A DNA stretch of 64,000 bases, from the IMG/VR virus record IMGVR_UViG_3300031134_000007, positions 1 through 64,000 of that record. One strand, written 5' to 3'. Of this stretch, positions 14,882-17,897 are shown piece by piece. This DNA comes from a virus. The notes below the pieces were generated by a model, which saw only the letters and a list, made by a program, of their open reading frames with translations, did not search any database and had not been told where the DNA came from. The stretch's first letter is position 1; each line of letters begins with the position of its first letter. The translations under genes were made by a program, and so were the position numbers.

Positions 14882-15057
14882 CTTTCACAGAGAACACTCA
14901 ATCGAGGACACAACAAACCAGGACCATACCCCTATAGCCCTTGACGCAGTAACCGGACAAATTACCACATCCCGCTGACCATTCAGGGAATCCGGGGAGG
15001 AACCTAAATAATCAGAAGGCTGTGTAAGTTCGAGACACCTTGGTCAATGAATCTTTT

Positions 15058-15187
15058 CACTGCTACAAGGAACATGCCTAGCGAGCACAAAGATGGTGAG
15101 TCAATGCACCTGTCCCTGTCGTGCTCCAGGGACCACGTTCCATGTTTCGTCGCTTTTAATGTCGGCGACTCATCAGGCAATACGACA
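15058..15187 (-). ncRNA. Hammerhead ribozyme, type I, with enlarged stem III loop
   Basis: Minus strand: stem I UAUUGC/GCAGUG, core CUGAUGA, stem II GUCGC/GCGAC, GAAA, stem III ACAUGGAACGUG/CAUGUUCCUUGU, cleavage triplet GUA. Loop II CGACA is complementary to UGUCG just 5' of stem I. Confidence 0.85.
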
Positions 15188-15329
15188 ATATGGTAGATCG
15201 CATACAGGGAATCTAACCCCGCAATGACCAGCATCATTTTAGCTGAGACAATCTACAGGAAGCGGATAGCTGCGTCGACTCAGCGTCTTTCTGTAAGCCA
15301 TGACTTTAGGCGAATGCAATCATTGAATA

Positions 15330-15430
15330 GGTGCCCAGAGGGAGGACTGACACCCCTCCACCTTCGTCCACACCACCCATAGTAAGTTTACGGGCATTCC
15401 GGGACGATGTTCTCATTAAACTATCTGGGC
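15330..15430 (-). ncRNA. tRNA-like RNA with extended anticodon arm and aberrant T-loop
   Basis: Acceptor GCCCAGA/UCUGGGC-A-CC, D-arm GUUU/GAAC, anticodon stem UCGUCC/GGACGA enclosing 32 nt, T-like stem GGAGG/CCUCC. Confidence 0.6.
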
Positions 15431-15436
15431 GATTTG

Positions 15437-15823
15437 TTAGAGCTCGATACCGTTCTCTTTAAAGAACGATAAGAACTCAAGCGCTGAGCCATAACAGCAT
15501 TCCCGCATTCTCAGCAGGTACGCGTGCAACAGCTCTACTGTTTCAAAGTACTCGGGATCCCAACACTCTTCTAAACCGTGGCAAGAACAATGAGAGGCGT
15601 GCACCTCGAAGAACTGCTCCTTCTTCGGGTCGTACCCAAAGACATACGCGCCACCACAATAATTGTCAGCGTCTTCTTCGCCATGGGCATACAAAATGAC
15701 GTAGTCATCGCACCGTATGGCAAATTCATCACAGACATCGTGGTAGTAAGCATTATGCGTACCATCGTCATTAAAGCCGGTGATACGTGGAGTCAGATTC
15801 AACAGCGCTTCTTTATTCAACAT
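15437..15823 (-). CDS. Hypothetical phage protein (HCSCxG motif)
   Basis: Start MLNKEA after AAGGA; Cys/His-rich acidic protein. Confidence 0.65.
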   Translation of the reverse strand: MLNKEALLNLTPRITGFNDDGTHNAYYHDVCDEFAIRCDDYVILYAHGEEDADNYCGGAYVFGYDPKKEQFFEVHASHCSCHGLEECWDPEYFETVELLHAYLLRMRECCYGSALEFLSFFKENGIEL

Positions 15824-16140
15824 AATGAGTTTCCTTGAGTAGTTTATCATCGCAAGATAAACAGTTGTGATCGGTATCAATTTCCGTTCACTACTCTTGG
15901 TGTTCTTCATCATGTTAAATGGATCGAGGTTAAGGACAGTCTGCATTCGTACAGTCCGGTCGGCTTTAGCGAATATGACTTAGTTGAAATCGCAGCTGTC
16001 CAAAACCTCAAAAGGGTACCCGAGTGCACTCGGGCTTAGACTGATCGTTGCCCCCGTCAACCGGGCGTGGTGGGGTGAAAGCCCAATGGCTACAATCAAT
16101 CTAATTCTGAATAGGTGTCCGGGTCAAGCCCGGACTTAAG

Positions 16141-16443
16141 TTAACCGGCGTTGTAATCCGCGAGGATCACAGCAGCGGACGCAGTGTGTGCTGTTCCCAC
16201 TAGGGTAACGCGCAGAGTATGGACATCCTTGAGTAGAACCCAGCTGCCATGATAGCGCTTAGCTCCCCACTCAAATTCTTCCAGTGACTCCTTCATGCAA
16301 TCCAGCACTTCACCAGAATCGGATTTGTTACAGAGTCCGGGGTGCAGTAGTCTAGCCGCATCCTCAGACGCAGCGACCACGACCATACCACTAAACTCGT
16401 CCCAATCCACGCTGTCGGTACGTTCCACTTTATAAATGTTCAT
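16141..16443 (-). CDS. Hypothetical phage protein
   Basis: MNIYKVERTD...VVVAASEDAARLLHP...ADYNAG, a common small phage protein pattern; GGAG RBS. Confidence 0.65.
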   Translation of the reverse strand: MNIYKVERTDSVDWDEFSGMVVVAASEDAARLLHPGLCNKSDSGEVLDCMKESLEEFEWGAKRYHGSWVLLKDVHTLRVTLVGTAHTASAAVILADYNAG

Positions 16444-16717
16444 GCTCATCTCCACTATGCTGAAAGCTGTCAGCGAGATGTGGTTTCCTGAACATGAATG
16501 CATTTGCCCGTTAACTTAATTTCGGTGTTTGGAGTTGGCTGTGTGGGCCTTGTCGTATCGAGTAATCAGTCAGCGATCAGAACACCTACCTGATCCAGAT
16601 GGAACAGTAGTCTTTTGTGTGTTCGGCTATTACGGGCTTATGGGCGTGCCGTAGGTCTCTGCGATCATCGCTGCAGGTTGGTTACCAGCCAGACCTGTGC
16701 CTCTTACCTGAACAATT

Positions 16718-16802
16718 TGGTGGCGGCGGATGGACTCGAACCATCGAAGACCGAAGTCGGGGGATTTACAGTCCCCTGCAATTGCCGCTATGCGACACCG
16801 CC
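16718..16802 (-). tRNA. tRNA-Tyr (GUA)
   Basis: GGCGGUG...GGGGA-CUGUAAA-UCCCC anticodon arm, long variable arm, GGUUCGAGUCC T-arm, encoded CCA. Confidence 0.95.
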
Positions 16803-16809
16803 AAATTTG

Positions 16810-17394
16810 TTAATCGATTAACCACGTCAGGACATAATTGTCGGACTTCTTGGCTAACCACGTATAATATTTACTGTGCCGGATCAGATGGAATGTCTGA
16901 ATACGGTGATCAATAAAGATCTGACGGATGTCATCTTTCGACACCTTTTCTTTACTGATCATGTCGCGCAGCATGTGGGCTGTGATAATGCGACACTTTG
17001 CCTCTTCAATAACATTAGGGTTCTGGCGGATCATTACCGCCGCTTCCGGGTGGATAGGAACCCAACCAGTACCCGGTATCCAAATGGAGTCGGATACTTT
17101 TTTACCATCCTGCGTGTTCTCATCTAACGATGCGTACATGGACAGATAGTTGACCGCGGCTTCTTGCAAGGAAAGGTTAAGGACAACCAAACGGGAAAGC
17201 GGATCACGGATCAAGCTTTCAATCATCCATTTGGTTTTACCGGTTTGACGCGGCCCACCTATTCCAAGCGTAAAGAATTCTTTCAGCGCCATGGGTTTAT
17301 CCAGGGCTAAACAATCAATCGGGCCAGCCACATCAGGGTCAACTAAACCACGTTTGAGTTCTTGCGCAATCGCATCATAATTGATGGCTGCCAT
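16810..17394 (-). CDS. Hypothetical P-loop-like protein
   Basis: 194 aa; LGIGGPRQTGKT is Walker A-like. Confidence 0.6.
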   Translation of the reverse strand: MAAINYDAIAQELKRGLVDPDVAGPIDCLALDKPMALKEFFTLGIGGPRQTGKTKWMIESLIRDPLSRLVVLNLSLQEAAVNYLSMYASLDENTQDGKKVSDSIWIPGTGWVPIHPEAAVMIRQNPNVIEEAKCRIITAHMLRDMISKEKVSKDDIRQIFIDHRIQTFHLIRHSKYYTWLAKKSDNYVLTWLID

Positions 17395-17416
17395 AGAAGC
17401 GTCCTCGTTAGGTAGA

Positions 17417-17635
17417 TTACAGGTATTGTGTCACCGGCTTAAACCGGAAACGTTTGCACAGCTTTTGTAACCAGTACGGTAATGCAGCAGCAATTTCACG
17501 ATGGTGATCATACAGCTCTCTTGCCCGGCGCATTTCTATCCCGTAGTGGATTTCGTCTTCGAAGTCCATGGGCTTACCGTCAAGCGTGTAGACACTCGCG
17601 CCATTGCGCTGATGGAACTTTACGCGTGGTTTCAT
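17417..17635 (-). CDS. Small hypothetical protein
   Basis: Start MKPRVK after a perfect AAGGAGGT RBS. Confidence 0.6.
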   Translation of the reverse strand: MKPRVKFHQRNGASVYTLDGKPMDFEDEIHYGIEMRRARELYDHHREIAAALPYWLQKLCKRFRFKPVTQYL

Positions 17636-17656
17636 ACTTACCTCCTTACATGTCAA

Positions 17657-17866
17657 GTTTTGAGATACCACGTGGCTGGTCGTGGTTACGGGTATTCGTC
17701 AGCGTACTTTCAGCTGATCCCAAGTCTCCTATTCCCCGCCGTCTGGCCATTACAGGTGCCCAATTCGAGCATTCATCTCAAAACCGCAATTACTAAGGAA
17801 GCGCATAAATCCAGAACAAGGTAACTGCTTCGATAGCTCAGAAGAACCACGAGAGACAGTTACCTT
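17657..17866 (-). ncRNA. Candidate structured ncRNA or leader with long-range pairings
   Basis: Two perfect 10-bp inverted repeats plus an 8-nt loop-to-distal complement, in a gene-free interval. Confidence 0.55.
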
Positions 17867-17897
17867 ACATACTAATATACGCAGTAGTATTTTTATA

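Follow-up and report, generated by a model that had tools for sequence, protein, structure and literature searches.

Positions 14882 to 17870 of a 64,000-nucleotide (nt) stretch of viral DNA (IMG/VR record IMGVR_UViG_3300031134_000007, positions 1 to 64,000, one strand; this whole stretch is referred to here as the window) hold an island in which four small protein genes are interleaved with structured RNA elements. These elements include a transfer RNA (tRNA), two tRNA-shaped RNAs, an acceptor-like minihelix, a hammerhead ribozyme and the structured modules M1, M2, M4 and M8 (Table 1). The source record of the window is a 104-kb fragment, estimated to be 37% complete. All plausible genes from 14.5 to 19.7 kb are on the minus strand. 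The gene starts were fixed from the match ranges of PHROG families and from Atlas records that agree letter for letter, which leaves a non-coding share of about 1.44 kb in 2,989 bases. Mechanical calls of open reading frames (ORFs) inflate the coding content (14520-14897, 15437-15946, 16141-16503 and 15004-15237, all on the minus strand). The ORFs of 125, 169 and 120 amino acids (aa) are 5'-extended forms of genes of 82, 128 and 100 aa, and the 77-aa ORF at 15004-15237(-) was rejected as a gene because it overlies the hammerhead. An earlier note on this DNA had described about 1.5 kb of 3 kb as non-coding and had named four small interleaved genes, a ribozyme, a tRNA, tRNA mimics and multiple structured RNAs. 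The measured non-coding length agrees with that figure, the starts of the four genes, all on the minus strand, were placed with PHROG and Atlas, and each of the named kinds of RNA was recovered, as set out below. Every intergenic block between the genes was found to be a conserved, covarying RNA structure.

Table 1. Features of the island and its borders in window coordinates (bp, base pairs).
Feature	Position	Strand	Description and basis
TATATTAGTATG motif	17868..17879	-	candidate start of the earlier note; direct reading
Leader hairpin	17818..17866	-	10-bp stem AAGGUAACUG / CAGUUACCUU; direct reading; window and L003 only
M1 leader RNA	17658..17785	-	about 128 nt; five helices; 13-bp closing stem
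Small gene 1	17417..17635	-	72 aa from ATG with AGGAGG ribosome-binding site (RBS); 84 aa from upstream GTG
Small gene 2	16810..17394	-	194-aa P-loop protein; Walker A GPRQTGKT; phrog_2586
tRNA-Tyr	16718..16802	-	anticodon GUA, long variable arm, encoded CCA; ARAGORN; RF00005, 52.7 bits against a threshold of 29
M2 multi-branch RNA	16535..16700	either strand	about 165 nt; alignments on both strands
Small gene 3	16141..16443	-	100 aa; Atlas record letter for letter; phrog_5444 match from residue 21 of the longer ORF
Acceptor-like minihelix	16108..16135	-	7-bp hairpin, then ACCUAUUCA; direct reading
M4 long-stem RNA with internal hairpin	15925..16010	-	32 pairs, 5 changed on both sides
Small gene 4	15437..15823	-	128 aa, Cys/His-rich; Atlas has the 128-aa form; phrog_8792 match from residue 69 of the 169-aa ORF
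tRNA-like A	15330..15430	-	alignment covariation; covariance model R1
tRNA-like B	15196..15321	-	alignment of three sequences
Type I hammerhead	15058..15187	-	core, stem and pseudoknot pair table in six phages
M8 3' RNA	14841..15063	-	about 220 nt; four-way core 15051-14911, then terminator hairpin
Early-promoter-like motif TTTCAAACCTATATTACCGTGGTG	14800..14826	-	next transcription unit, directly after the island terminator

The same gene order was found by BLAST and protein searches in four distinct close relatives, namely Salmonella phage vB_SalM_SA002 (L001, hereafter SA002), Erwinia phage pEa_SNUABM_48 (L002), an IMG/VR contig that is 86% identical to the window (L003) and a complete 273-kb IMG/VR contig (L004, G001). 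The match in pEa_SNUABM_37 is identical to that in pEa_SNUABM_48, the matches in L005 are identical to L004, and only three related loci were found in IMG/VR, with a single protein as well as with the alignment. Identity of the window to the four relatives is 77-88% in the RNA blocks versus 66-72% in the interleaved ORFs. Compared with L004, identity is 66% over genes 1 and 2 taken as a block and 71-86% in the RNA blocks; compared with SA002, it is 72% in the P-loop gene (small gene 2), 88% in the leader element M1 and 80% in the terminal RNA. These comparisons support a slower evolution of the RNAs than of the four interleaved genes. The alignments further show that the predicted elements exist, fold and are under purifying selection stronger than that on the neighbouring proteins. 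At least six uncatalogued structured RNAs are kept more faithfully than the proteins encoded beside them.

The closest relatives are unclassified Caudoviricetes. Homologues of the P-loop gene, tRNA-like A and the hammerhead were also found in an Agricanvirus, Erwinia phage AH06 (L169), of the family Chimalliviridae, and these support a relatedness of the window phage to Chimalliviridae only indirectly. The P-loop gene homologues of AH06 and of Serratia phage Moabite adjoin tRNAs or gene-poor DNA. The order in AH06 is P-loop gene, tRNA-like element, tRNA-like A, hammerhead and terminal RNA, with no genes interposed between the RNAs, and because the AH06 RNAs adjoin one another without genes, the RNAs are the conserved core of the island and the small genes optional passengers. 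Among the cultured members, the host of SA002 is Salmonella and that of pEa_SNUABM_48 and AH06 is Erwinia.

Covariation was assessed in five close loci (the window and L001-L004), with AH06 added for some modules, based on the percentage of paired cells, the number of pairs changed on both sides, 500 shuffles and controls with slid partners. Covariation in homologous regions, on which the earlier note had made its idea depend, was found. A permissive Rfam 15 scan of 14400-18300 (E up to 10) gave, besides the tRNA and the hammerhead core, chance matches only, and GOLLD, ROOL, group I and II introns and other self-cleaving ribozymes had no match in it; a group I/II intron or split-gene reading was rejected for want of such a match. 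A mir-4872 match at 14825-14893(+) was also discarded, since it arises from the opposite strand of the terminator hairpin.

The best Rfam match to the ribozyme was Hammerhead_3 at 15139-15210(-), with the core CUGAUGA...GAAA and 26.7 bits compared with a gathering score of 48.5. The Hammerhead_3 model imposes a type III reading and is unable to bridge the 57-nt insert in stem III. In the type I layout, the stem I 3' strand UAUUGC is followed by the core CUGAUGA, stem II GUCGC/GCGAC with an 11-nt loop, GAA, stem III formed by ACAUGGAACGUG (15145-15134) with CAUGUUCCUUGU (15076-15065), the triplet GUA and the stem I 5' strand GCAGUG, and when the window sequence is folded without constraints, precisely this hammerhead has the minimum energy. 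Two other readings were rejected: the type III reading of Rfam requires 1.1 to be bulged in the window and gives the relatives no stem I, and if stem III of a type I reading were closed at CAGGU, H17 of the window would become a G.

The core C3 U4 G5 A6 N7 G8 A9, G12 A13 A14, with A15.1-U16.1 and an H17 other than G, is present in all six phages (the five close loci and AH06), and the sole core change among them is at N7, U to C in pEa_SNUABM_48; N7 is the one position of the hammerhead core that is known to vary. The cleavage triplet is GUA, with GUC in L004 and AH06. Stem II shows an exchange in L004 from GUCGC/GCGAC to GUUGC/GCAAC (C-G to U-A). In stem III, 11-12 of 12 pairs are kept; L003 has exchanged G-C for A-U, and the letters differ throughout in L004 and AH06. 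Stem I reads GCAGUG/UAUUGC in the window and GGAGUA/UACUCC in AH06; in L003 it is weak, with 3 of 6 pairs when no gap is allowed. A pseudoknot between the 5' tail N-GUCG and CGAC-N of loop II joins stems I and II; its outer pair is U-A in the window and L003, A-U in SA002 and pEa_SNUABM_48 and C-G in L004, and in AH06, where all hammerhead helices are in different letters, it is CGUCU/AGACG. The stem III insert measures 57 nt in the window and at least 86 nt in AH06. With stems and pseudoknot covarying in six phages, a complete type I hammerhead ribozyme is established at the level of sequence, and its predicted cleavage would fall after A15064. Pattern scans of metagenomes and genomes with the hammerhead core returned unrelated generic hammerheads, and L008, L112 and L115 had the core only.

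The earlier note had also proposed that the non-coding parts are packed with nested or pseudoknotted pairings. The nested pairings are borne out by covariation, and so is the hammerhead pseudoknot, but the other proposed pseudoknots do not covary. One of these, the putative pairing GAGCAC/GUGCUC of the stem III insert, is sequence-invariant in the loci having it. The same is true of the putative pairing between the loop UCGUGGUU of the leader hairpin and its complement at 17687-17680 in M1, which competes with a conserved hairpin.

A variant from wastewater (runs X1 and X2) has the 13 bases upstream of the hammerhead (15186-15200) swapped for 49 others. Because pEa_SNUABM_48 also has a longer insert at this junction, besides the wastewater variant, the junction is an insertion hot spot. 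Short contigs of this phage and its relatives were obtained from three wastewater complementary DNA (cDNA) runs and from one other run; the contigs are silent on transcripts.

The tRNA-Tyr(GUA) is the sole tRNA that ARAGORN and Rfam detected in the whole 64-kb window, and tRNA acceptor stems covary among the relatives. The two tRNA-shaped RNAs gave no ARAGORN call and no Rfam tRNA match even at E up to 10; in their predicted folds they are tRNA-shaped and they lie outside the tRNA family RF00005. The tRNA-like A cloverleaf consists of a 7-bp acceptor, U-A, a 4-bp D arm (loop AAUGA), a non-canonical T arm (loop GUGUCAG), an ACC tail and a doubled anticodon arm, in which a 6-bp stem, an internal loop and an 8-bp stem lead to the invariant loop AACUUAC. 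Its 31 pairs are paired in 97.4% of the cells, 13 of them are changed on both sides, none of the 500 shuffles reaches this result, and slid controls gave 40-54%. The R1 covariance model detected a homologue in AH06 (L169:5145-5265, 31 bits, E ~1e-6), in which every stem is different and the loop AACUUAC is kept, and a variant contig from wastewater adds a further compensatory exchange, U-A to C-G at 15407/15364. The pair of tRNA-like A and hammerhead is shown by comparison with AH06 to be old, and it spans a deep split in the phage group.

In tRNA-like B, which was aligned in three sequences only, an acceptor, a D arm, a long central arm, a variable hairpin and a T arm were recognized; the T arm is canonical (UUCGAGU) in L003, and the window has the T-loop-like UUAGAUU. 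It has 36 pairs, 9 of which are changed on both sides, and it occurs in the window, L003 and pEa_SNUABM_48 and is absent in SA002 and L004. The hairpin of the acceptor-like minihelix is kept in all five close loci with one U-A to C-G exchange. The ACCUAUUCA tail after the minihelix is the tail after tRNA-like A, and a ACCUAUUC tail is common to the 7-bp acceptor stems of the two.

Further tRNA-related sequences were observed in the relatives. A true tRNA-Asn lies upstream of the M1 homologue in pEa_SNUABM_48 (L002:4672-4745(-)), and a degenerate tRNA-like sequence of 34 bits lies upstream of the M1 homologue in SA002 (L001:4377-4447(-)); the position matching these upstream tRNAs is taken in the window by the 10-bp leader hairpin. 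In AH06, a tRNA-like element of about 90 nt (L169:5001-5090(+)) stands at the position of the window's tRNA-Tyr, directly after the P-loop gene, with an 8-bp acceptor, a T arm and an ACC tail, and it gave no ARAGORN call.

The gain and loss of modules (tRNA-like B is missing from two relatives, the tRNA is missing from L004, and the tRNA upstream of M1 is degenerate in SA002), together with a true tRNA-Tyr and tRNA-Ser at the corresponding locus of Moabite, could suggest that the tRNA-shaped elements are a decaying array of pseudo-tRNAs and the hammerhead a selfish or neutral passenger. We regard this as very improbable, since the supposed remnants are better conserved than the surrounding proteins, their pairing is upheld by compensatory changes, and the fold and loop of tRNA-like A persist as far as Agricanvirus, at a distance where identity of the adjacent protein has fallen to only 30%.

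The remaining modules, M1, M2, M4 and M8, covary as well. M1 has 41 pairs (98.5% paired across the alignment), with 9 changed on both sides and a result reached by none of 500 shuffles; pEa_SNUABM_48 and L004 carry extra hairpins at one junction. It ends about 20 nt upstream of the RBS of the first small gene, whichever gene comes first. M1 has no Rfam match, and the R2 model built from it found nothing in the Moabite or AH06 loci and no second copy in the window. In the M8 core, 46 pairs were aligned with 94.7% of the cells paired, and 13 of these pairs are changed on both sides; its model R3 matched in the five close loci only, with no match in the Moabite or AH06 loci and no second copy in the window. 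An nhmmer search for distant homologues of the modules returned only the hammerhead and a weak match of the IG2 element, i.e., M4, which is the module with the weakest support.

M2 was aligned with 44 pairs on the minus strand versus 53 on the plus strand, 7 being changed on both sides either way, and the covariation scores of the two strands are equal (0.184 and 0.183). The plus strand has a lower consensus energy and more wobble-compatible single changes, and one pair favours the minus strand. M2 is 79% identical in L004, although L004 is without the tRNA. Beside M4, the window and L003 alone share a palindrome at 16034-16019, upstream of M4, and an insert of about 65-75 nt with a 13-bp stem at 16036-16100(-), between the minihelix and M4; by its distribution, the insert is another case of the gain or loss of a whole hairpin in the island.

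These modules could also be understood as cis-acting leaders and trailers (riboswitch-like elements, attenuators or stability elements) rather than as released RNAs. The constant spacing of M1 to the first RBS in each phage, the position of M2 and M4 before genes 3 and 4, and the conserved junction nucleotides of M1 combined with a site of variable inserts, as is often seen in riboswitch aptamers, would all fit such a function. Nevertheless, M8 and tRNA-like A and B regulate no downstream ORF, because they lie after the last gene and before the terminator; tRNA-like A, the hammerhead and the terminal RNA of AH06 adjoin without genes; acceptor stems, ACC tails and a ribozyme are cutting devices with no obvious sensing role; and M1 is single-copy in the 104-kb record. 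The cis-acting explanation is considered unlikely for the island as a whole.

The borders of the island were examined for transcription signals. The terminator that the earlier note had placed at its 3' end was confirmed, since the hairpin 14883-14841 is kept in all five close loci and covaries in SA002. Directly behind it, TTTCAAACCTATATTACCGTGGTG (14824-14801) is kept in the five loci and fits the early-promoter consensus of the giant phages of the phiKZ group (PMC7058600, Table 2). The motif TTTCAAAYCTATATTACnnnGGTG recurs in the window, always on the minus strand, at 21595-21610, 14801-14824 and 29017-29032, with looser copies at 487-494(-) and 49020-49027(-), and it probably marks early transcription units. 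The TATG-type start that the earlier note had suggested at about 17871 fared less well: TATATTAGTATG is present and identical in L003, but absent at this position in SA002, pEa_SNUABM_48 and L004, and it has in common with the early-promoter consensus TATATTA and TATG only, without the TTTCAAA and GGTG flanks. The islands of SA002, pEa_SNUABM_48 and AH06 extend further upstream, with tRNA-Asn, degenerate tRNA and YrlA-like modules. A strong terminator-like hairpin, in which a 9-bp stem is followed by UCUUUUCC, was observed at 18624-18647(-), directly 3' of a 332-aa gene. Because this hairpin lies within the GTG-extended start of a 189-aa ORF, that ORF probably starts later and the operon may split here.

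Based on these findings, we are inclined, with somewhat more confidence than doubt, to regard the island as a conserved RNA-gene cluster of a giant phage with relatives in Chimalliviridae; the cluster would form the 3' end of a transcription unit on the minus strand, and its precursor would be cut into RNAs and messenger RNAs (mRNAs). The genes and RNAs lie on one strand, between the conserved terminator and the upstream genes, and the candidate cut sites, i.e., acceptor stems with ACC tails and A15064, appear to sit where discrete RNAs would be released. One precursor would carry the four small mRNAs together with M1, tRNA-Tyr, the minihelix, tRNA-like A and B, the hammerhead and M8, and also M2 if it is read on the same strand. 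Host RNase P would cut the 5' sides of the acceptor stems of the tRNA and the tRNA-shaped RNAs, RNase E, RNase Z or exonucleases would act at the ACC tails, and the hammerhead would cut itself after A15064, so that M8 would begin with a 5'-OH. The outcome would be the resolution of the precursor into discrete stable RNAs and short mRNAs. We infer the co-transcription, the cuts and the purpose of the island from this arrangement; the purpose is most likely to act on the host tRNA, translation or RNA-cleavage machinery early in infection.

Several points weigh against this reading. The hammerhead is below the gathering threshold of Rfam. The opposite-strand fold of M2 is at least as good as that on the minus strand. 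The T loop and D loop of tRNA-like A are without the canonical nucleotides, which makes its recognition by RNase P plausible and not assured. The hairpin 18647-18624 lies between the island and the nearest consensus early promoter (21610-21595). The set of sequences is small, and part of the covariation may stem from common descent; the slid controls, however, speak against this.

The earlier note had named decoys for host anticodon nucleases or RNA-targeting defence, and scaffolds, as possible roles. A more specific purpose was accordingly considered, in which the island serves counter-defence, with tRNA-Tyr replacing a host tRNA destroyed by an anticodon or tRNA nuclease and the tRNA-shaped RNAs acting as decoys or sponges of these nucleases or of other defence proteins that bind tRNA. 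The tRNAs of the locus are Tyr only, plus Asn in pEa_SNUABM_48, and colicin E5 has four tRNA substrates, both of these included (PMC1635277). Full-length RtcB, an RNA ligase that seals such breaks, was observed in two relatives, pEa_SNUABM_48 (MW879340.1, 91427-92575) and AH06 (MZ501268.1, 45028-46176), with E ~1e-128. The invariant 7-nt loop that tRNA-like A carries on a variable stem resembles a recognized surface, and the island is set among units with early-type promoters. On the other hand, AACUUAC is unlike the anticodon loop of any known nuclease target, with A in place of U33, and the search for RtcB found none in SA002 or in the complete 273-kb contig G001. In addition, the role is inferential throughout, with no linked host defence gene or phenotype. 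Counter-defence by tRNA repair and decoys is therefore held to be a doubtful explanation when taken by itself, and a tRNA-, translation- or counter-defence-related role in the wider sense is the most likely one for the RNA-gene cluster.

An extension of the cluster reading, which we put forward only as a speculation with rather little chance of being correct, is a device for host takeover or counter-defence made of RNA and produced early in infection. In this device, the AACUUAC loop of tRNA-like A and the RNA released by the hammerhead would titrate a host factor, and tRNA-Tyr would restore the tRNA pool; the titrated factor could be a nuclease aimed at tRNA, an enzyme of tRNA modification or processing, or a defence protein that senses RNA. 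If such a device exists, it would represent a new class of phage effector made of RNA, whereas the known anti-defence effectors are proteins.

Hammerheads stabilized by pseudoknots have been described in phages and prophages, and a part in the processing of long transcripts has been proposed for them (Perreault et al., 2011; PMC3088659). The hammerhead of the island shares with these phage hammerheads (Rfam clan CL00010) the catalytic core, the three helices, the base-paired contact of stems I and II and the intergenic place in a phage operon. It differs from them in being type I, in its 57-nt stem III insert and in its linkage to tRNA-shaped RNAs, and the product released is predicted to be a structured non-coding RNA, compared with mRNA in the known phage examples. 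As a natural hammerhead with a large stem III insert, it has been overlooked by current models, and the island as a whole offers new RNA families for databases.

The tRNA region of T4 encodes two stable RNAs of unknown role, C and D (PMC3014915). Like the RNAs of the island, rnaC and rnaD (species 1 and 2 RNAs) are small RNAs at the promoter-distal end of a phage tRNA cluster, and the predicted fold of rnaC resembles a tRNA and includes a canonical T arm. The R1 and R3 models gave 6.4 and 9.5 bits on the rnaC/rnaD locus (E above 0.05), so that no homology was detected, and the likeness is confined to position and shape. T4 carries eight tRNAs but lacks a ribozyme; the island combines a single tRNA with a hammerhead, its RNAs are larger and more numerous, and protein genes lie between them. 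If the proposed purpose holds, the island would be a larger relative of the stable RNAs of the T4 tRNA cluster. Phage non-coding RNAs other than tRNAs are almost unexplored, and the RNAs C and D have been without a function for decades. The role of the RNAs in phage tRNA clusters becomes directly testable here, because coordinates, predicted ends and a predicted ribozyme cut are defined.

Modules with sub-threshold matches to YrlA (RF02553; 32-42 bits compared with 69) were observed in the relatives at L001:5092-5209(-), L002:5184-5287(-) and L169:3637-3701(+). The YrlA model did not match the window at E up to 0.5, and no Ro60/TROVE gene was found in five related phage records. YrlA and the tRNA-shaped RNAs of the island are alike in mimicking tRNA, and the YrlA-like modules of the relatives lie within their islands, but tRNA-like A and B are not permuted as YrlA is. 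In tRNA punctuation and related processing signals, as in mitochondrial transcripts and the mascRNA of MALAT1, tRNAs or tRNA-shaped elements lying between other RNAs are cut by RNase P and RNase Z, and a polycistronic precursor is resolved in this way. Such systems are eukaryotic or organellar, and the elements of the island differ further in carrying conserved loops and arms beyond the needs of a cut site. A literature search found no description of RNA islands of this kind.

The proteins of the four small genes matched no family in a Pfam search, small gene 1 has no PHROG family, and the Atlas annotation of the matched small proteins is only 'hypothetical viral protein'. The stretch homologous to small gene 1 is alignable in pEa_SNUABM_48 and L004. 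For the 194-aa P-loop protein, 16 homologues were found. Its AlphaFold2 model (pLDDT, the predicted local distance difference test, 78.7) is one RecA-like domain, and the top structural matches (Z 8-9.4), to RecA1 domains of SF2 helicases, are too generic for a function to be assigned. The protein is about 30% identical to those of Moabite and AH06, and in each relative its gene adjoins a tRNA or tRNA-like RNAs.

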